A stretch of DNA of 19,722 bases from a virus (IMGVR_UViG_3300021319_000003); one strand, 5' to 3'. Numbered from the stretch's first letter, positions 32 through 17,357 are shown. A program made the numbers and translations. Notes: generated by a model not told the origin, from the sequence alone.

Positions 32-70
32 ATCGCCCTCCGGGCGATAAGTTGTCTTGTTTTTTATGAG
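32..70 (+). promoter_or_regulatory. Hairpin + conserved tail element, copy 1 (candidate N4-type hairpin promoter)
   Basis: ATCGCCC-TCC-GGGCGAT (32-48), then AAG and TTGTCTTGTTTTTTATGAG (52-70). The minus-strand loop reads C-GGA-G. The repeat is seen directly; promoter function is inferred. Confidence 0.6.
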
Positions 71-1695: not shown

Positions 1696-1848
1696 ATGGA
1701 AATTATCATTGTTGGCATGTTCTTTGCCGCCTTTTGTTCTGTTGCCGCGCTCATCGCATGGGGAATCATTTCCCTTGTGATAGATTGCATTAAGGGCCTG
1801 TTCACGAGCAGTGAGCCCAAGAAGAAACCCTACGGCTATAGAAGGTAA
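1696..1848 (+). CDS. Small single-pass membrane protein, 50 aa (not in ORF track)
   Basis: GAGGAGG RBS. MEIIIVGMFFAAFCSVAALIAWGIISLVIDCIKGLFTSSEPKKKPYGYRR has a hydrophobic N-terminal half and a basic tail. Confidence 0.75.
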   Translation: MEIIIVGMFFAAFCSVAALIAWGIISLVIDCIKGLFTSSEPKKKPYGYRR

Positions 1849-1927: not shown

Positions 1928-2071
1928 ATGAAAAAGACGTACATCTCGATTGAATGGGGCGACACTCGTACCCGGTTTGAACGGGCCGAAGCAATCAAGA
2001 AAGCCTTGGAGCTTGTAGCCCGCAAGGCAAAACCGAATACCCAGGAAGAAGCCGCCCGCAAAGCGGCTTAA
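1928..2071 (+). CDS. Hypothetical protein, 47 aa, ends -KAA (not in ORF track)
   Basis: GAAAGGAG RBS; MKKTYISIEWGDTRTRFERAEAIKKALELVARKAKPNTQEEAARKAA. Confidence 0.75.
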   Translation: MKKTYISIEWGDTRTRFERAEAIKKALELVARKAKPNTQEEAARKAA

Positions 2072-2085
2072 TTTTTTTGTTTTGT
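2049..2085 (+). terminator. Intrinsic terminator-like hairpin overlapping the stop codon
   Basis: AAGCCGC/GCGGCTT stem followed by AATTTTTTTGTTTTG. Confidence 0.55.
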
Positions 2086-2118
2086 TTGTTGTTTGTTGAA
2101 AAAAGGAGATTGAAAACC

Positions 2119-2535
2119 ATGGAAATTAAAATGAACTTCACGAAAAACGAAATGGCAACCATAGAGAAACTGCACAAGGCCTACAACCAGGCCTTCGGCC
2201 GCGATGACCACTACGAGGTAACAGGCCCTGTCCGCTTCTCCGTAAACCATATGCGCGGCGAAGCTACGGTTACGCTGGCCTTCAATGAGTTCTCCACTTG
2301 CGACATCATGGATATCGCAATCCGCAACAGCCACCTCGTCAAGAGTCTGGGTGCAACGGCAAAAGCACTGTTCGAGCTGGGCAAGAGCACGCTCAACATC
2401 CTGGAAGGCGAGCTCAAGTCGGTATGTGCCAAGTACAAGGAGAAGCCGAAGGCACAGGAGACAAGCGAGAAAAAGCCCTTTGGAAGTTTCGTTTCCAAAG
2501 AAGACATCGATGAAATGAATAACAAGGCGGCCTGA
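2119..2535 (+). CDS. Hypothetical protein, 138 aa, ends -KAA
   Basis: AAAGGAG RBS before ATG 2119; by eye, codon bias typical of high expression. Confidence 0.85.
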   Translation: MEIKMNFTKNEMATIEKLHKAYNQAFGRDDHYEVTGPVRFSVNHMRGEATVTLAFNEFSTCDIMDIAIRNSHLVKSLGATAKALFELGKSTLNILEGELKSVCAKYKEKPKAQETSEKKPFGSFVSKEDIDEMNNKAA

Positions 2536-2594
2536 CCCGAGCAGTCTGTCGCCTTACGGAATAACAAGATAAATGATAAAGGGAGATTGGGAAT

Positions 2595-2768
2595 ATGAAG
2601 AAACTGTTGAACTGGTATTTTGGAAATGGTATTGCGGCAGACGATAAAAGTATTCTGGCGCGAAGGCAGAAGATAAGCCAGGAAGCCAGAAACGTAATGG
2701 GCCAGGCAGTAGACGTGATTGCAACCGGTGCAGTCGTATTCTATGCCGTGGCTAAGAATATGCGCTGA
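2595..2768 (+). CDS. Hypothetical protein, 57 aa (not in ORF track)
   Basis: AAAGGGAG RBS; MKKLLNWYFGNG...VIATGAVVFYAVAKNMR with a moderately hydrophobic C-terminus. Confidence 0.65.
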   Translation: MKKLLNWYFGNGIAADDKSILARRQKISQEARNVMGQAVDVIATGAVVFYAVAKNMR

Positions 2769-2790
2769 TAAGAAAGGCAGGTTGTTAATC

Positions 2791-2958
2791 ATGTTGAATA
2801 CCAATGCAAATATTGAAAAAATCCGCAAACACAATCGTATGCACAGCGAGGGGCAGGAGCGTCGTATCCGTGACCGCGCAAAGCGGAAAATGACCCGCCG
2901 TGATTACGAACGGCTTGCGGAAGAAAAAGAATACGCCGGCTACAAAATCGCCGCGTGA
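2791..2958 (+). CDS. Small basic protein, 55 aa, ends -KIAA
   Basis: AGAAAGG upstream of ATG 2791; Arg/Lys-rich. Confidence 0.7.
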   Translation: MLNTNANIEKIRKHNRMHSEGQERRIRDRAKRKMTRRDYERLAEEKEYAGYKIAA

Positions 2959-3032
2959 TAAATTCTCGATAGAGACGCCGCAGGATAATATCCTCTTGTC
3001 TGGATAGTGCCGTCTCCGTCGATACACCCTCT

Positions 3033-3067
3033 TCGCCCTTCGGGCGATATTGTCTTGTTTATTTTGG
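3033..3067 (+). promoter_or_regulatory. Hairpin + conserved tail element, copy 3
   Basis: TCGCCC-TTC-GGGCGA-TA-TTGTCTTGTTTATTTTGG. Confidence 0.65.
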
Positions 3068-3134
3068 GCTTCCCGGTAATCCCCTGAAAACATCCCCCAT
3101 GCTTTTCACTTTCTCGCTGGGAAGCCTATTTTTT
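3066..3134 (+). ncRNA. Candidate small RNA or terminator with a C5 apical loop
   Basis: GGGCTTCCCGG/CTGGGAAGCCT 11-bp stem (two G.U pairs), inner TGAAAA-CAT/ATG-TTTTCA, loop CCCCC, followed by ATTTTTT. Confidence 0.45.
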
Positions 3135-3164
3135 ATTGATTGAACAGTAAAGGAGTTAATCATC

Positions 3165-3428
3165 ATGTTATTTTGCAGTGATATCGAAACGTTATTTCCT
3201 GGTACGTATCACCGTCACATCAATGCGCACAGACTGACTACTTTGTGCGACAGCTTCCACAGTGTCAGCCATGACAAGCTGGATACCATCCGCAAGGATA
3301 CCCGTGATGGCGAGCTGGTTATCGCCGCCCGCCTGAAAACCGACTATGGTGAAACCATCTTCTTTACCGATAACACGACTTTCAACGACCTCGTGGCTCT
3401 TAGCGAGGAGGCTAAAGTCGCCGCATAA
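3165..3428 (+). CDS. Hypothetical protein, 87 aa, ends -KVAA
   Basis: AAAGGAG RBS and ATG 3165. Confidence 0.8.
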   Translation: MLFCSDIETLFPGTYHRHINAHRLTTLCDSFHSVSHDKLDTIRKDTRDGELVIAARLKTDYGETIFFTDNTTFNDLVALSEEAKVAA

Positions 3429-3556
3429 ATCCCCACCTTGGCAAACGAGGAGCATTAAGCTCTTCGTTGTGTGCTAAAGAGTGCCCCCTATCACTTTTCA
3501 GCATACAACGAAAGGCTTAAATCTTACAGCCACGGCTACCCTCTCATCAAGAGCTT

Positions 3557-3592
3557 GTCTGCTCCGCAGACGATTGTCTTGTTTTTTATGAG
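3557..3592 (+). promoter_or_regulatory. Hairpin + conserved tail element, copy 4
   Basis: GTCTGC-TCC-GCAGAC-GA-TTGTCTTGTTTTTTATGAG. The stem sequence differs from copies 1-3, but the fold, loop type and tail are kept. Confidence 0.65.
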
Positions 3593-3789
3593 GGATTTGG
3601 ACCTCGGACATACAGGCTATATACTAATAATTCATGCCTGTCAACCTGTCCCGTCCTACAGCTACAGCTGGATTATCCTTTCATCGTATACCCTACCCAG
3701 AAGGACAGCGCGTCCAGAAATGTTAACATGTATCCCGCCAAAGCGAAATGCTAATAAATGAGCGGGGCAAGAAAAGGAGAATGATAATT

Positions 3790-4734
3790 ATGGCAACCAA
3801 TGTAAATGTAAACGCAATCGTAAAAGAACAGGCTCAGGCACCGGTATCCCGTCGCGCCGCAATGCTCGCAGGTCTTTCCAAGCAGATGGAAGCAGTAAAT
3901 ATCCTGACTGACAAGGCCCGCGCAAAACGCGAAGAAGAGCTCAAGAACAACACCGTCATCATGTCGGTTGTTTCCTCCCGTGGTTATGTTGGCTTCGTAG
4001 CAGGCGATATCGCAGAGAACATCGTAGAACCCGCGCTGGTTTGCCCTGCAGTAAATACCAAATCTGGTGAGCGTCTGTCGGCTCCCGTTGCTACGCTTAT
4101 CGGCGCCAGCAAGGCTATTGCCAAGGCCGAAACCTATGGCAAGGAACATCTGGTTCTTTATGTCAACGACTTTGAGGCCCGCCGTCTTAGTGGTATGCTC
4201 TCCCGCATCAACAAGGGTGACAACACCGTGCTGACGCCTGCAGAAAAGGAACATATCAACGATGAACGCAACAGCGCGAAATATGGTCAGGCCTACATGG
4301 CAACGGCAGGCACGGTATTCAAAATGCTCCAGGACGCAAAACAGAAGTTTAAGTCCGTACGCGTTATGGGCCACAGCTCCATCTTTGGCTGGGAAACCCG
4401 CTACAACCTTCCGCTCGACATGGAAAACATGGAACTGACCTTCGTGAAAGGTTTGGCTTCCACCATGCACAAAGGGCGCAACTACCGCATCACGCTTGCT
4501 TCGGGCTTCAAGCTCAATGGCAAGCATAAGCTGGTTAAGGCTAACGGCAACCTCGTGGTAGAGCGGGAAATCAAGGCAGGCTCCGAACAGGAAACCGCCC
4601 GTGACCTCTTGTCCATCGCCAACCAGACGATTATCATTGAGGACGCCAAGAACCGCAATGAAGAATTCGTCGGCGACATGGAGGCTGTTGCAGAACCGCA
4701 GGAAGAATCCGCAGGTTTCGACTTTGCCGCATAA
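3790..4734 (+). CDS. Hypothetical protein, about 314 aa, ends -DFAA
   Basis: AAAAGGAG RBS, ATG 3790 (alternative 3781), strong codon bias; weak RNase H-like pattern in the middle. Confidence 0.88.
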   Translation: MATNVNVNAIVKEQAQAPVSRRAAMLAGLSKQMEAVNILTDKARAKREEELKNNTVIMSVVSSRGYVGFVAGDIAENIVEPALVCPAVNTKSGERLSAPVATLIGASKAIAKAETYGKEHLVLYVNDFEARRLSGMLSRINKGDNTVLTPAEKEHINDERNSAKYGQAYMATAGTVFKMLQDAKQKFKSVRVMGHSSIFGWETRYNLPLDMENMELTFVKGLASTMHKGRNYRITLASGFKLNGKHKLVKANGNLVVEREIKAGSEQETARDLLSIANQTIIIEDAKNRNEEFVGDMEAVAEPQEESAGFDFAA

Positions 4735-4748
4735 GTGAATGAAACAGG

Positions 4749-4781
4749 CTGGACTGCTCAAGGCGGGCAGTCCAGTTTTTG
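4749..4781 (+). terminator. Intrinsic terminator
   Basis: CTGGACTGC/GCAGTCCAG 9-bp stem followed by TTTTTG, 14 nt after the stop. Confidence 0.7.
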
Positions 4782-4806
4782 TCGTCAAGAAAGGACGGAA
4801 AGAAAA

Positions 4807-5100
4807 ATGATTATGAATAAAGTATGCCCGAAATATATCGTATTCCCGAAATCCAACAACCGCGCCAATTCCAAAGTAACCTGGACGCTTCGTAAGAACC
4901 TTACGAATGGCTGGGTAAATATTTCCGCCAAAATTCCGCAGACCTGCATTGACGCATATGGTCTGATTGACCCCGAGGTTATGCACCTGCTTCGTACACC
5001 GTGCACAAAGAGCCGTTTCGCTCTCCGTTCCCTGTACAGGGTAGAGGTCAGTTATGATTACCACCTTATCGAAGACGCGGTTATGCCGATTGCCGCTTGA
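4807..5100 (+). CDS. Hypothetical protein, about 97 aa, ends -PIAA
   Basis: AAGAAAGGA upstream of ATG 4807 (alternative 4813). Confidence 0.75.
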   Translation: MIMNKVCPKYIVFPKSNNRANSKVTWTLRKNLTNGWVNISAKIPQTCIDAYGLIDPEVMHLLRTPCTKSRFALRSLYRVEVSYDYHLIEDAVMPIAA

Positions 5101-5132: not shown

Positions 5133-5867
5133 ATGGCAACCGAAAAAGACAAAACAACTGCCCAGGGGGCAAATGACCCTGTTCTCGATTTCCTGGGCGG
5201 TACTCTGGAAGCAATGCTTGGTCCAGACCTGAAAGAAGAACCGCCACAGGAAAAAATCGAGGACGCAGAGATTACAAAAGACGTACAGGAGGAAGAAAAG
5301 ATGAGTAAAGAGAATGTGACGACGATTGACAATGAAACGGGAGAGGTTCTGCAGGATAAGTTCAGCAAGAAGTTTGAATCCCGTCAGGAAGCGAACAACC
5401 TGCTGGATTTGCTCGACAGCCTCGGCTATGAAGACAGCTATGAAACCAGCGATGGCGGTAAGACGGTTATCCTCTCGGGTGTTTCCGCAGAGGATTTACA
5501 GCTTATCCAGCGCAAAGCGAACATCAAGCTCTGGTCTGACCGTACGCAGGCGGTAGCAAAAGCCGTCACCACGTTTGCAACGGATGTTGCTGACTATGCC
5601 CTGAATGGCGCACTTGCACCGACGGCTGGTGCAGTCGTAAATGCTGGTATGACCACGGGCCGTGTTGTGGCCACCGCCGCAGTTTCTGTTGGCGCCGCAA
5701 CGCTTGCAACGACTATCCGCAATGGCCGTGCCGCCGCCCGTGAGCTTTCCCGCAACAAGGATGTTCAGGATGCCTGGAATGAAGTAAAGGGTCTGGGCTC
5801 CGACATTGGCGGTCTGCTCTTCGGCTCCAAAGGCAGTTCCAAGTCTGATTGGACTGCTTGTGCCTGA
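5133..5867 (+). CDS. Hypothetical protein, 244 aa, acidic N-terminus and Ala/Gly/Val/Thr-rich C-terminal half
   Basis: GAGGAGGG RBS; a second in-frame start with AGGAGG at about 5301 (MSKENV...). Confidence 0.85.
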   Translation: MATEKDKTTAQGANDPVLDFLGGTLEAMLGPDLKEEPPQEKIEDAEITKDVQEEEKMSKENVTTIDNETGEVLQDKFSKKFESRQEANNLLDLLDSLGYEDSYETSDGGKTVILSGVSAEDLQLIQRKANIKLWSDRTQAVAKAVTTFATDVADYALNGALAPTAGAVVNAGMTTGRVVATAAVSVGAATLATTIRNGRAAARELSRNKDVQDAWNEVKGLGSDIGGLLFGSKGSSKSDWTACA

Positions 5868-5880
5868 TAAGTAAAGAAAC

Positions 5881-5917
5881 GTCCGTCCGCTATTTTTTTG
5901 GCGGGCGGATTGTTTTT
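5881..5917 (+). terminator. Intrinsic terminator
   Basis: GTCCGTCCGCTA/TGGCGGGCGGAT stem of about 12 bp with G.U pairs, followed by TGTTTTT, directly after the 5867 stop. Confidence 0.7.
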
Positions 5918-5944
5918 ATAAGTTACTCAAAGGAGGATACCGTT

Positions 5945-6082
5945 ATATTTGCTTTATTGTTTGCCTTATTCGAGTTAGGTTCTGAAGTGAACCAGTTTAT
6001 CGAAATAGAAGTTGAAAAGGACGAGCGCGAAATCAGAAGACTAAAAGGCGAACAGCAAAAAGCGCGCGCCCGTAAATCCTAA
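5945..6082 (+). CDS. Possible 45-aa protein with a non-canonical ATA start, or a decayed gene
   Basis: Perfect AGGAGG (5931-5936) 8 nt before an in-frame ATA; reads (M)FALLFALFELGSEVNQFIEIEVEKDEREIRRLKGEQQKARARKS. Confidence 0.35.
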   Translation: MFALLFALFELGSEVNQFIEIEVEKDEREIRRLKGEQQKARARKS

Positions 6083-6403
6083 TCCGAAATTCATGCTTAC
6101 GAAAGGAGTGAGATAAGCACCATGGTAACTATTGTGACATATTTAAGCAAGCTATACAAAACAAACGCTTCCAGAAATATGACATATTCAAGAAACATAG
6201 CTTATGTCACAAACGCCTGTAAAAATACCAGCCCCTTCCCCACCCATAAACAAGAAGAAAGACCACTTACTTATCTCATGGGTAAAAAGGCTGATAAGTG
6301 CCCGAAGGATTTCCGCCCAGGACTTATCCATGGCCGTCCCCATACCTACCCCTCGGGAGGGATTAAGGCACCGCCCGCTAAATTGGCTCCAGGGATTTAG
6401 CTT

Positions 6404-6457
6404 AACCTTATGAGCGCAGATAGACTGTATTCGGTTAGCAAAACCTTATGAGCGCAG
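6404..6457 (+). repeat. 16-bp direct repeat AACCTTATGAGCGCAG x2, with a third variant at 7217-7232
   Basis: Exact copies at 6404-6419 and 6442-6457; AACCTTGTGAGCGCAG at 7217-7232. Confidence 0.85.
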
Positions 6458-6533
6458 TCTTATCAGCAAAACAAAGATAAGACAAACATAAAGGTTAAGA
6501 TAAAGAACATAAAGAGCTTATTTATATATACAA

Positions 6534-7184
6534 GCGAGCGAGCGAAGCGAGCGAGCATAATAACAAGCTAAAAAAAAGAAATAAATAGAGCTTGTTTAAA
6601 AAAGCGAGCGTAGCGAGCGTATATAAAATAAGACAAAAAAGAAAACAAGAAAGAAAAAAGATTTAAGATACAAACTTTTACAGGAACAGTAAAAGTAGTT
6701 CAAAGTATATTAAATCAAAAAAGATAAGACAATGACAATATCTTAAATAAAATAAAAGATATTAAGTCATGTCCTTATCAAGGGGCGAGCGAAGCGAGCC
6801 CCGTTAAACACTACAAAAGGGCGTTACATCATTCTGTCCCAAGTAAATTCCCTATCTACTGGATACAGAATTATCCCATTTCTCCCTTCTCGTGTATATA
6901 CAAATATATATCCCCATATATATTCCCCTCTTTATACCGCAAGGGGAGAAAGAGTATTCACATACTCCGCCCGCTACTACCCGCGCGCGACCTCCGGCGC
7001 GCAAATTGTATCGTTCTTTATGCATATATTAATTATATCATTCACACACACCTCTAACAGGATATACATATATATACTACACACTCCCCATATATAGGAG
7101 TGCTGTTCGATATATATATACCAATATACACATAAAGAGCCATATAATTTAGGGCTTCAGGCGGGCGAGCGTAAGCGAGCCCGC
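6534..7184 (+). repeat. Four GCGAGC-GN(N)A-GCGAGC hairpin repeats
   Basis: Copies at 6534-6556, 6604-6618, 6782-6802 and 7161-7184; a CGC-GAA-GCG mini-hairpin at 7276-7284. Confidence 0.85.
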
Positions 7185-7435
7185 AATACAACAAGTGTGC
7201 TAAGAACGGTTACTTGAACCTTGTGAGCGCAGCACACGTATCTTTGCCTGACATACCCAGGAGCAAAAACCAAAACGCGAAGCGCAAAATTAATAAAATA
7301 TAAATCTGTAAACCAAGTCCATAGAAAGAGTACACAAGTATTACAATAAAAATACAAGTGAACGAAATTCAAGAAAAAGATATATTCTCCCCTATAGGGA
7401 AAATAATACTTTTTGAAAGACAGGTTTACACTTTG

Positions 7436-7548
7436 GACAAATTTTGCAAGACAAATTTTTCGCGGTGCAGATTTTTGAAAACTCCGGGACAAATTTTTTA
7501 CTGCAGTCCACCAGCAAAATTTCTGAACTGGATTTTGCGGACAAATTT
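7436..7548 (+). repeat. GACAAATTT(T) direct repeats x4, with a fifth at 7995-8004
   Basis: Copies at 7436, 7450, 7488, 7540 and 7995. Confidence 0.75.
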
Positions 7549-7805
7549 GCGGAAGGCAAACCAAAAACGCCAGACACATCTGAAATACAGATTTTCGAAG
7601 TGGCATTTGTAAAAAGTTAGTTCCAAAACGCCCGCTACACCCGTTATCTTTAACGTAGCGCGACGATAGCAGGATAATTTTTAAAAAGTGCCACAAGGAA
7701 ATTGGAGCTTCATATGAGGCTAATTTGGCCCATACAGGGGAGATTCGATGAGGTACGATTCAAGCTCCGTTTTTCAAAAAGCGTTATATTATCGCTTTAA
7801 TTCTA

Positions 7806-7834
7806 TTGATGTACCTAGTCCGCCCCATTATTAT
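7806..7834 (+). promoter_or_regulatory. Candidate sigma70/sigmaA promoter
   Basis: TTGATG-17 nt-TATTAT. Confidence 0.4.
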
Positions 7835-8123
7835 AGTGTCTTTTACCCCTCTATCGTGTTCCTTGTTCCTCTATCCTTCCCCTTGTTGTAGCATGCTATG
7901 TAGAGTCCGTTGCCGCAGGCAAGTATCCGAGTTATCCCCTTGATAATGCTGGAGGTAGACGAGTTAGAGCGTAAAGAAAAAGAGGTAAGTTTTTGACAAA
8001 TTTTTTGGAGCGAGGTTGCACCGAGGCATGTAAAAGATTGTTCTGAACGGTAAGGAGAAGTACCCTAATACCGATTTATTTTTCCTTAATTACAAGTTCT
8101 TGAGATTTTTATACACCCCTTAC

Positions 8124-8153
8124 TTGACAATGAGGTGGTTATCCGTGTATATT
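8124..8153 (+). promoter_or_regulatory. sigma70/sigmaA-type promoter for the downstream gene run
   Basis: Perfect TTGACA, 18-nt spacer, TATATT; 85 nt upstream of ATG 8238. Confidence 0.7.
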
Positions 8154-8237
8154 ATGTTAGGTAGATTAAGAATACGTTAGTAAGATTAGAGAGATTGAAT
8201 AAAGAGATAGAGAGATAAGCAAGGAAGGTGTATACTG

Positions 8238-9496: not shown

Positions 9497-9913
9497 ATGT
9501 CTTATACATTAACTGTTAATATCAATCTGGAGAGTATGGATATAGAATCGCTTAAAAATCTGCGCGCCGAAATTGATAAGCTGCTCGCAAAGAAACAGCT
9601 TGCCAGTAACCTGCCGAAGTTAAGTGGCAGCCTGAAGCAAAAAATGCAGAACAACCCAACGCTTGCTCCAGAGCTCAGCAAAAGGTTTTATGCAGTAGGC
9701 TGTAAAAACCTGGAAGACATATATAACTATCCGCCCGAAAAGATGGTCTGGCTGGAAAAACTTACCCTGTCAAGCATTGACCATACCCTGTATGTATTAA
9801 AAGCCCATGGGTACGATTACGAAATGCGCTGGATTACCACTGTAAATGAGATGAAGGATAAGCTCCGGCAGATTAAGAAAGAGAAGAAGGACGGCAGATT
9901 TTCAGTAGCTTAA
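9497..9913 (+). CDS. Protein with a degenerate RNAP alpha-CTD-like (HhH) domain, paralog of 13273-13821
   Basis: AAGGAG RBS; shares G...DIY..PP...L.K...L...GYDYE..W..T..EM with the paralog. Confidence 0.7.
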   Translation: MSYTLTVNINLESMDIESLKNLRAEIDKLLAKKQLASNLPKLSGSLKQKMQNNPTLAPELSKRFYAVGCKNLEDIYNYPPEKMVWLEKLTLSSIDHTLYVLKAHGYDYEMRWITTVNEMKDKLRQIKKEKKDGRFSVA

Positions 9914-11091: not shown

Positions 11092-11670
11092 ATGAGCGTT
11101 TTTATACAGAAGATGATGACTTGTGTAGACGGCCGTGATATTAAGGAAGTGCTGGGTGATGTTGCGCGCCCAATGGAAAAGGTTAGCTACAAACACACCC
11201 AGGAATATATTTCCGGAAAGTACGAATATGTCTTTGGGATGGTGCGCTACAATCATTTGGCAATCGACCTGTATGAAATTGCCCCACACCTGTTCGATAA
11301 AAAGAAGGATATGGAAGAAGGCTTCCTTATCCATGATATGAATGGTCATTTTGACGCAGAGGAAAAGTATCTGCGCTTTGGCTTCAAGGTTTTGAAGAAA
11401 GACGAAACCTGGACGACCTTCTCGCATCCGTTTTATAAAGAAGTGCTTGATACCTACTATCAGGAGGAAGTACACTTTGGTGACCACAATGAAATGTGGT
11501 GGTGTGGCAATTACCACATCAATGAAACGGTTGACTTTGCGGTTTCTTACAGATTCCCCGATACCGAGTTCGAGGTAAAAGAAATCTGCGAAAACGACCT
11601 GGTTGCGCATTATATCTTAAAAGCCGGCCGTATCGTCAAGAACCTTCTCAAAGAAAAGCAGGCAGCTTAA
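11092..11670 (+). CDS. Hypothetical protein, 192 aa, ends -KQAA
   Basis: AGAAAGGAAG RBS. Confidence 0.85.
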   Translation: MSVFIQKMMTCVDGRDIKEVLGDVARPMEKVSYKHTQEYISGKYEYVFGMVRYNHLAIDLYEIAPHLFDKKKDMEEGFLIHDMNGHFDAEEKYLRFGFKVLKKDETWTTFSHPFYKEVLDTYYQEEVHFGDHNEMWWCGNYHINETVDFAVSYRFPDTEFEVKEICENDLVAHYILKAGRIVKNLLKEKQAA

Positions 11671-14667: not shown

Positions 14668-14844
14668 ATGAAAGTAAGAGACTTACGTGAGATTCTGGAA
14701 CATATGCCGGATGAATATGTCATCTCGGTGTCCAAAGAGAATGCATATGGCTGGTACAAAAAAGATGGCAGTAAGCGTACAGGCTGCGTAGTGTTCCTGG
14801 ATGACGAGAATGCAATCGTTATCGAAAAGGATACGGCAGCATAA
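14668..14844 (+). CDS. Small hypothetical protein, 58 aa, ends -DTAA (not in ORF track)
   Basis: AAAGGTG RBS; MKVRDLREILEHMPDEYVISV is a typical phage N-terminus. Confidence 0.75.
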   Translation: MKVRDLREILEHMPDEYVISVSKENAYGWYKKDGSKRTGCVVFLDDENAIVIEKDTAA

Positions 14845-16060: not shown

Positions 16061-17357
16061 GTGGCAAAGAAGTATTTGTATAAAGGTAAGGAATACCGTT
16101 TTGGTGAATTAGCGAAGCTTGCTAAATGCAGTAAGAAAGCACTCGAATCCCGTTTAAAAAAAGGCTGGGACGTTGAAAAAAGCTATTAACACGCCTCAAC
16201 TCAGAGATGTTAAAAGGCGCGGTTTTAAGCTTGAGTATAACGGAAAAATGGTTTCTGTATCACAGCTATCAAAAGAGACTGGAATTAGCACACACCTTAT
16301 ATGGAAACGGATTGATGAAGGAAAGACTGTAGAGGAGATTATAGAAAAACCATATACTAACACAAAAGTGTATGAAATAAAAAAAGGACTTTGTACCCGT
16401 CACGAAATTAATCAGATGGCCAAGGATAGCTCATTAAGCTATAACACAATCGGTAAGCGCTTGTTTGATGGCTGGAGTATTGAAGAAGCTTTGAATACGC
16501 CGGTTCTTCCCGGCGTACGCCGGGAAATGCGATTCCGTGTAATGTACAAGGGAAAAGACTACACAATGAAGGAACTTTCCCAGTTACCAGAATGTGTAGT
16601 GAGTGCAGACCTACTTACCTCCAGGATTAAAAATGGAGGATGGGATGTAGAAAAAGCTATCACAACCAAACCTTTGTCAGGGGCAGAGCGTATGCAAATG
16701 GCACGAGAAAAAGGAATGTTATTAGGACGTACTGCAAAAAAATACACATATAAAGGTAAGGAATACACATTAAGAGAGCTATTGGCCTTGCCGGAATGTG
16801 AAGTACAGCAATACAACACTCTTTGTAGTAGAATCAACCAAAGGGGATTAAGCGTCGAAGAAGCATTAAAAGTAAAGCGCGGAGAAAAGTATAGATATCA
16901 TGGAAAACTGTTGACTGTAAGTGAGCTTGCCAAATTACCTGAGTGTAAAGTATGCGTAAAGACCTTAAGAGACAGACTCCGGAATGGAATGGCGGTAGAA
17001 AAAGCGCTTACACTGCCACGAGAAGGAAAAACATACGAATACAAAGGGCGGTATTATTCAATCAAAGAACTTGCAGAATTGCCAGAATGCAAAGTACAGC
17101 AACAAGTGTTGTATAAGAGACTAAAAACTGAATGTGCAGAAGAAGCTATTAGTCGCCTCCCTGACCGTAGTGGTCCAAAGGGCAATAAAGTGTATCGGTA
17201 TAACGGTGCCAGCTACACAGTCACCGAATTGGCTGCTATGCCTGAATGTCAGGTAAGCATGCCAGCGCTATATGCAAGGCTCAAAAAAGGAGATAGTGTT
17301 GAAGGTGCAATGGGGGCTTTACGCAAAAGAGGATGTAAAGCCAAGAAAACATCTTGA
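16061..17357 (+). CDS. Tandem 8-repeat HTH-like DNA-binding protein, split by one extra A at 16176-16181
   Basis: GAAAGGTG RBS with GTG 16061. Repeat unit Y.Y.G..YT..EL..LPEC.V....L..RL..G..VE.A...P. Repeat 1 (16061-16189) is one base out of frame with repeats 2-8. Confidence 0.75.

Follow-up and report, generated by a model that had tools for sequence, protein, structure and literature searches.

The present analysis concerns a 19,722-nucleotide stretch of viral DNA (IMGVR_UViG_3300021319_000003), hereafter the window, and within it a cassette of mostly small genes whose successive protein products end in Ala-Ala (AA). The window corresponds to bases 156,403–176,124 of a 235,547-bp genome (44.5% G+C, 96% complete by CheckV) deposited in IMG/VR, which belongs to a huge, uncultivated gut phage with provenance in animal faecal metagenomes. 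The minus strand of this genome from 0 to 146 kb carries the DNA polymerase and giant proteins of 2,200–3,100 residues; from 146.5 kb onward the plus strand holds a block of genes that are mostly small. Genes were called with a self-trained open reading frame caller, and two cassette calls were corrected by hand, giving 296 genes genome-wide. The window had no match to phage or plasmid collections by megablast, the 314- and 244-residue proteins of the cassette had no match among cultured phages by tblastn, and none of the ten cassette proteins belonged to a significant Pfam or PHROG family. Strong Shine-Dalgarno sites precede all cassette genes, which suggests a Firmicutes-type host. Between positions 1928 and 5100, six of the seven Shine-Dalgarno-led genes end in AA. 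This had been claimed in an original prediction made from the window itself, and all six termini, the sole exception at 2595 and the Ala codon pairs listed there were found in the sequence as described, the coordinates given being gene starts. The observation holds, and more strongly than the prediction had put it.

All genes of the cassette lie on the plus strand. The run of AA-ending genes begins with a 47-residue basic protein (1928..2071) ending in ARKAA (GCG GCT TAA), an AA ending that is kept in related loci L001, L002 and L008. It is followed by a 138-residue protein without Pfam or PHROG family (2119..2535) that ends in NNKAA (GCG GCC TGA) and whose orthologues, at 51–70% identity, end in DKEAA or DKKAA with different Ala codons. 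Next among the AA-ending genes are a very basic 55-residue protein (2791..2958) ending in EYAGYKIAA (GCC GCG TGA) and an acidic 87-residue protein (3165..3428) ending in AKVAA (GCC GCA TAA), the latter with orthologues ending in AEAAA, ERIAA and, in one lineage, AAVA. The largest of the six is a 314-residue protein with an RNase H-like core (3790..4734) that ends in FDFAA (GCC GCA TAA), and the run closes with a 97-residue protein (4807..5100) ending in MPIAA (GCC GCT TGA). Orthologues of this last protein end in MPVAA and DERLAA, and the syntenic genes in remote loci end in EVIAA, GKEAA, EEVLA and YREVA. The exception among the seven is a 57-residue peptide (2595..2768) that ends in KNMR, or NIR/NMR in relatives, and that is probably a membrane peptide, its hydrophobic C-terminal segment reaching a Kyte-Doolittle 19-residue maximum of 1.67 at residues 33–52. 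Directly 5′ of the AA run lies a second non-AA membrane peptide of 50 residues (1696..1848), ending in GYRR, with a maximum of 2.67. By the same measure all six AA proteins are soluble.

Ala-Ala ends were found far more often than composition would provide. Six of nine genes in the cassette end in AA (binomial p 2e-12), and a genome-wide count of C-terminal dipeptides, which the original prediction had proposed as a check, found AA at the end of 18 of 296 genes compared with 1.6 expected from an internal AA dipeptide frequency of 0.54% (binomial p 1e-13). The pattern reaches beyond the 3-kb cassette to approximately 28 kb of non-structural genes: 14 of the 49 genes between 153 and 181 kb of the genome end in AA against 4/247 elsewhere (Fisher p 4e-9). 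Open reading frames that were not called as genes ended in AA at a rate of 0.3%. More broadly, Ala is raised as the last residue (48/296 genes), with -VA the second commonest ending. Proteins beyond the cassette that share the AA ending include a Dda-like helicase, a PcfJ-like protein, a weakly Mor-like protein, the C-terminal part of PolIII-alpha, a KilAC antirepressor and PhoH, and all AA-ending proteins with a recognisable family are cytoplasmic and non-structural. Paralogy among the AA-ending proteins was considered and rejected, because the proteins are unrelated to one another. As controls, AA ends were counted in the annotated early and middle genes of coliphage N4 (0/49) and in a 50-kb non-structural stretch of Bacillus phage SPO1 (1/91). 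An origin by chance or base composition is effectively excluded: the cassette is indeed richer in G+C (48–51% vs 40–42% nearby) and in Ala (11% vs 7% elsewhere in the genome), but at 11% Ala an AA-end rate of about 1% is expected rather than 6/9 (p ~1e-12), four of seven genes end in AA in a relative with 37% G+C, and conservation is specific to the last two positions.

This conservation was assessed in two IMG/VR genomes (211 and 224 kb) and three metagenome contigs that carry the cassette at 50–94% protein identity and that, with the window, represent four lineages. Over 15 comparisons in alignments anchored at the C-terminus, identity to the window was 15/15 at position -1 and 14/15 at -2, and merely 4–8 of 15 at positions -3 to -10. 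All six families keep AA across the four lineages, with a single A-to-V change (to AAVA, in one lineage), so the proposed tag survived the comparison with homologues, which might have lacked it. The third positions of the Ala codons and the stop codons vary freely, for example GCG GCC TGA, GCC GCG TAA and GCG GCA TAA within one family. Termini other than AA (GVA, RAS, NIR, TCA) are likewise kept in relatives, and on these alignments the ending is therefore stable for each gene individually. Two proteins encoded upstream of the window show the same behaviour: the Dda-like helicase ends in KDIAA (KDMAA in relatives) and a 159-residue protein ends in EKIAA (EKVAA in one relative). The helicase (L010:7036–8331, genome 153,035–154,330) has at most 31% identity to any cultured phage; its alignment to cultured-phage helicases stops at residue 415 of 431, and its last 15 residues are a clade-specific extension carrying the tail.

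More distant relatives were obtained with a profile of the 314-residue family, which identified 24 relatives among 1.8 billion representatives. Eighteen remote homologues were full-length, and 14 of these end in Ala (four AA, three VA, and the rest IA, MA, SA, EA and QA), the ending always being preceded by an acidic, variable tail. Across five remote loci AA ends occurred in 21 of 72 genes. The proportion ranged from 5/5 in L023, whose other four genes lack detectable homologues in this phage, through 4/7 in L026 (37% G+C), 7/27 in L027 and 5/29 in L028, to 0/4 in L025, but -MA and -LA ends are present in that locus. Three of the four genes just 5′ of the RNase H-like gene in L028 (5477–6927) end in -AG (GFAG, PVAG, AYAG), seemingly a form of the shared ending particular to that lineage. 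Because AA ends recur in remote loci, including in genes that are not homologous to any in this phage, the trait as read from these termini belongs to a gene class and a phage clade rather than to particular protein families, with a dialect that varies between lineages. Synteny around the RNase H-like gene in the distant phages consists of an upstream protein of 1,100–1,400 residues without known family and, on the 3′ side, a gene of about 97 codons followed by one of 220–270 codons whose product ends in W-T-A-C. The equivalent region of one distant relative also contains a HicA/HicB toxin-antitoxin pair (L028:9293–9765). Separately, Bro-N domain proteins in related phages end in AA (L008:7130–9127, KKFAA; L027:19176–20501, CKYAA).

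With the ending conserved in homologues and remote cassettes rich in AA, selection has very probably acted on the protein terminus to maintain a C-terminal tag, Ala-Ala or hydrophobic-Ala, common to soluble proteins of non-structural type. Selection could instead act on RNA or translation, with GCN GCN stop favouring efficient termination, avoidance of stalling or overlap with a terminator stem. At gene 1928 such a constraint has some basis, since its last codons (GCC GCC CGC AAA GCG GCT TAA) supply both arms, the final ones the 3′ arm, of a terminator-like hairpin at 2049–2069 that is followed by a run of T, each arm being an Ala-Ala-coding segment; GCC GCA TAA is furthermore invariant in the 314-residue family. 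As a general explanation, however, an RNA-level effect is very improbable: AA ends are found with every possible third-position base and with each of the three stop codons, most AA ends do not lie beside hairpins and only the tail of gene 1928 overlaps one, the bias is confined to one gene class (the 14/49 compared with 4/247 noted above), and where the ending has been replaced the change is a conservative one for the protein (A to V; AA to LA or MA).

A tag selected at the protein level brings to mind the ssrA tag added by transfer-messenger RNA (tmRNA), and the phage encodes its own. A tmRNA (RF00023) lies at genome 202,719–203,117 (L003:1501–1899), scoring 90.7 bits against a cut-off of 47 bits, and ARAGORN reads its tag as DEVEYRLAA followed by a stop; relative G001 has one as well (tag DEAEYRLAA, Rfam score 85.7 bits). 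The end of the phage tag, YRLAA, matches the [LFYW]-[LAR]-L-A-A consensus of the strongest degrons in Escherichia coli (PMC10862746). Some encoded tails resemble the added tag in turn. The 55-residue protein at 2791 ends in GYKIAA here and in AEYKIAA in relatives, comparable to AEYRLAA or VEYRLAA, and the PcfJ-like protein ends in EYKEAA. For the window's own 55-residue protein the likeness is within chance after multiple testing (~0.9% per 5-mer, 18 tails), and mimicry of the tag, which is strong in the relatives' version, is suggestive and is kept as a lead only. Neither ClpP, AAA_2 (ClpX-type), AAA, Lon_C, SspB or S41 domains nor SmpB, with which tmRNA works, were found in the phage genome, and readers of these kinds would thus be supplied by the host.

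On balance we consider it somewhat probable that the AA tails are a class-wide ssrA-like degron, of the ClpX C-motif-1 type, read by a host protease. The reader would most plausibly be ClpXP and the outcome degradation, and the interpretation offered by the original prediction is supported in part. A free x-Ala-Ala-COOH tail would be bound by a host AAA+ protease and the protein then degraded, so that tailed phage proteins would have a short lifetime built in and would become scarcer when the region is no longer transcribed. Tags would probably differ in strength according to what precedes AA (I, V, F or L as opposed to K or E), and the phage tmRNA would add a tag of the same type (EYRLAA), such that built-in and added tags feed one reader. 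In an unbiased screen in E. coli, Ala-Ala was terminal in 91% of the top 100 C-terminal degrons, and the strongest tags were ClpXP-dependent and followed the consensus given above, with FKLVA at the top (PMC10862746). The tail sequences here are compatible with this published preference. At -3, where Leu or another aliphatic residue is favourable and Gly, Pro or a short polar residue is not, four of six families have I, V, F or L and the other two K or E, with the proviso that the rule for favourable residues comes from E. coli and may not be that of the host. The two non-AA small genes of the cassette encode hydrophobic membrane peptides, and these exceptions accordingly fit a degron.

Several observations weigh against a degron. 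Terminal AA alone is insufficient in E. coli, where 39% of AA-ending tags are weak and where Gly or polar residues upstream weaken AA tags further (PMC10862746). Two of the six window tails have Lys at -3 and several tails are acidic, features that weaken recognition in E. coli. Some lineages have -MA, -LA, -VA or -AG in place of AA, replacements that fit a reader with looser or different specificity. It is also odd that the tail is found on stable enzymes such as the helicase and the polymerase part, which is at odds with a design purely for a short pulse of activity. Finally, constraint at the RNA level may contribute at gene 1928, where the last codons lie in the hairpin.

The same tails could serve as decoys, with many abundant AA-ended proteins and the products tagged by phage tmRNA competing for host ClpXP or other proteases that read ssrA tags. 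Competition of this kind would delay the breakdown of proteins, of host or phage, whose loss harms the phage, for example the antitoxins of abortive-infection systems. A decoy shares the sequence evidence for a degron, and it would be in keeping with the large number of tails, their concentration in one region, the presence of a tmRNA in the phage, and the close imitation of the AEYRLAA tag by the AEYKIAA tail of the tiny 55-residue protein in relatives. We regard it as quite unlikely nonetheless. Nothing separates competition from simple turnover, enzymes with clear functions of their own also bear the tail, and the likeness of the 55-residue protein to the tag in the window's own phage is of the chance order already described.

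The 314-residue protein at 3790–4734 offers a view of how one of these tails may be presented. In an AlphaFold2 model its core, at about residues 53–199, is a five-stranded mixed sheet with flanking helices that can be superposed on RNase H1, and VIA-align gave a Z of 10.9 and a root-mean-square deviation of 2.8 over 111 residues to 4e19_A. All 13 top VIA chains with Z of at least 8 were RNase H domains, and the Foldseek E value was 1.5e-4. The predicted local distance difference test score (pLDDT) is 80–93 in the core, with a mean of 62 for the whole model, and as modelled the core has an RNase H-like fold. It seems from the sequence to be without the first catalytic Asp: by eye, the first strand (IMSVVSS) has no Asp, and there is an invariant N126-D127-x-E129 after strand 4. 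The acidic tail at residues 288–314 has no predicted secondary structure, and because pLDDT is below 50 over these last 27 residues, disorder and exposure of the tail are probable. FAA is the ending of all five of the protein's close homologues.

Such an arrangement, in which a folded core is followed by an acidic linker, probably disordered, and by a hydrophobic tip that is conserved (DFAA), is similar to that of the single-stranded DNA-binding protein SSB, and by analogy with the acidic tips of SSB and T7 gp2.5 the tails could be docking peptides by which a non-proteolytic host or phage reader of no recognisable family sorts, assembles, localises or regulates the tailed class. That the tag is conserved and class-wide would be expected, the variants -AG, -MA and -LA by lineage suggest co-evolution with a reader, and many proteins of this phage are without known family. 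No candidate for this reader was identified, however, the motif is exactly that of the C-terminal degron best known in bacteria, and the tail is borne by very different proteins, from a helicase to 47-residue peptides, that have no other feature in common. Docking is therefore unlikely, although we give it some weight. Returning to proteolysis, a broader and tentative proposal is that the phage tmRNA tag and the encoded tails of about one-third of the early and middle non-structural proteins, one of them nearly a copy of that tag, might form in this clade of huge gut phages a single, coordinated C-terminal tag economy that programs or deliberately jams the ssrA-reading proteases of the host during infection, with the dialect (AA, VA, LA/MA, AG) co-evolving with the host of each lineage; we think this rather doubtful but worth stating.

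Several known systems bear on the proposed degron. The ssrA tag and ClpX C-motif-1 degrons have, like the tails here, a free C-terminal Ala-Ala that often follows an aliphatic or aromatic residue (IAA, VAA, FAA, LAA). The ssrA tag is added by trans-translation, whereas these putative degrons are encoded in the genome, as the ends of about 18 phage proteins that are unrelated; several of them are acidic or carry Lys or Glu at -3, which in E. coli weakens recognition. Caulobacter CtrA, a cytoplasmic regulator, has a natural, conserved Ala-Ala end through which ClpXP is proposed or shown to control its stability. Among phage proteins, MuA transposase (C-motif 2, RRKKAI) and the Mu repressor are read by ClpX. 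As proposed here, these are cases in which short C-terminal peptides encoded by a phage engage host ClpX, but their motif is of another class, they are individual proteins, and they are remodelled as well as degraded. The alanine tails added by RqcH in ribosome quality control of Firmicutes are a C-terminal proteolysis signal. They are comparable in consisting of C-terminal alanines and in acting in Gram-positive hosts, the host type suggested here by the Shine-Dalgarno sites, and differ in being added after translation stalls instead of being encoded in the genome. In Streptomyces, the cytoplasmic regulator sigma-AntA likewise has a conserved, encoded AA terminus through which ClpXP is proposed or shown to control stability, and changing the natural AA to DD increased expression of its target genes (PMC3933326). 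For such regulators the AA-to-DD change is the usual test. Both sigma-AntA and CtrA are individual proteins, whereas the tails described here mark a whole viral gene class across a phage clade. The VA ends that are common in this genome may be compared with FKLVA, the top tag of the E. coli screen (PMC10862746). Huge phages with tmRNA genes have been reported (Al-Shayeb et al. 2020, PMC7162821), and this phage and one relative likewise have a canonical tmRNA; in the passages of that report that were consulted phage tmRNA tags were not linked to the termini of encoded proteins, whereas here the tag and the tails are of one type.

Within the open-access literature searched, natural AA degrons were found for single proteins only, and no account was found of a virus with an Ala-Ala ending across a whole gene class and kept clade-wide. 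Ala-Ala degrons are themselves well known for tmRNA tags and for a few single regulators; what appears to be new is that a virus with its own tmRNA encodes in its genome an ssrA-like tail that marks a whole class of proteins and is conserved across a clade. Should the tails be degrons, the phage would regulate its genes also through programmed protein lifetimes, or would use the tails to occupy host proteases. Unstable or early phage proteins could then be predicted in metagenomes by a simple rule of sequence, and phage-encoded tmRNAs would gain a concrete role.

The transcriptional layout of the cassette shows a second recurrent feature, a hairpin with a 5–8-bp stem and a 3-nucleotide TCC or TTC loop followed by the conserved tail ATTGTCTTGTTTATTTTG. 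Six copies are present in the genome, all on the plus strand, at window positions 32–70, 1856–1890, 3033–3067 and 3555–3595 and at genome 155,869 and 195,578. The elements delimit transcription units within the cassette, which is divided by four copies, and they are kept in relatives with different stem sequences (six in L001). They may be promoters or terminators. No good sigma-70-type promoter was found in the cassette. A strong terminator-like hairpin at 5881–5910 closes it, and between this terminator and a sigma-70-like promoter (TTGACA-18-TATATT, 8124–8153), the only strong one in the first 8.5 kb of the window, is a 2.3-kb, AT-rich, gene-poor spacer (5900–8230). AA ends also occur 3′ of this promoter, at 11092 and 14668 and at genome 176–180 kb. 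We infer that the AA-tail genes belong to an early or middle expression class. A virion RNA polymerase was sought among the giant proteins: the 3,081-residue protein had no sequence match in the PDB, the 2,234-residue protein matched only an HNH motif, and the 2,907-residue protein matched a giant "endolysin" PHROG, results that are uninformative either way. One metatranscriptome run contains assembled contigs spanning the entire window, a signal that may be DNA carry-over.

The genes flanking the AA run were described in part correctly by the original prediction. The endings SVA, for the upstream gene at 793–1269, and ACA, for the last gene of the cassette (5133..5867, plus strand, a 244-residue acidic protein ending in WTACA), were right, but two genes that intervene before 1928 had been omitted, one at 1289–1681 ending in RRAS and the other the membrane peptide at 1696–1848 described above. 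Farther into the window the termini had all been read accurately. Two genes there belong to the AA class, a 192-residue protein (11092..11670, plus strand) ending in EKQAA and a 58-residue protein (14668..14844, plus strand) ending in KDTAA, and two others end in a single Ala, at 9497 (SVA) and 19005 (YVA). Toward the 3′ end of the window, a 394-residue protein (16173–17357) consists of approximately six repeats of a unit of about 45 residues (ELAxLPECKV) and has a weak PVL_ORF50-like Pfam match.

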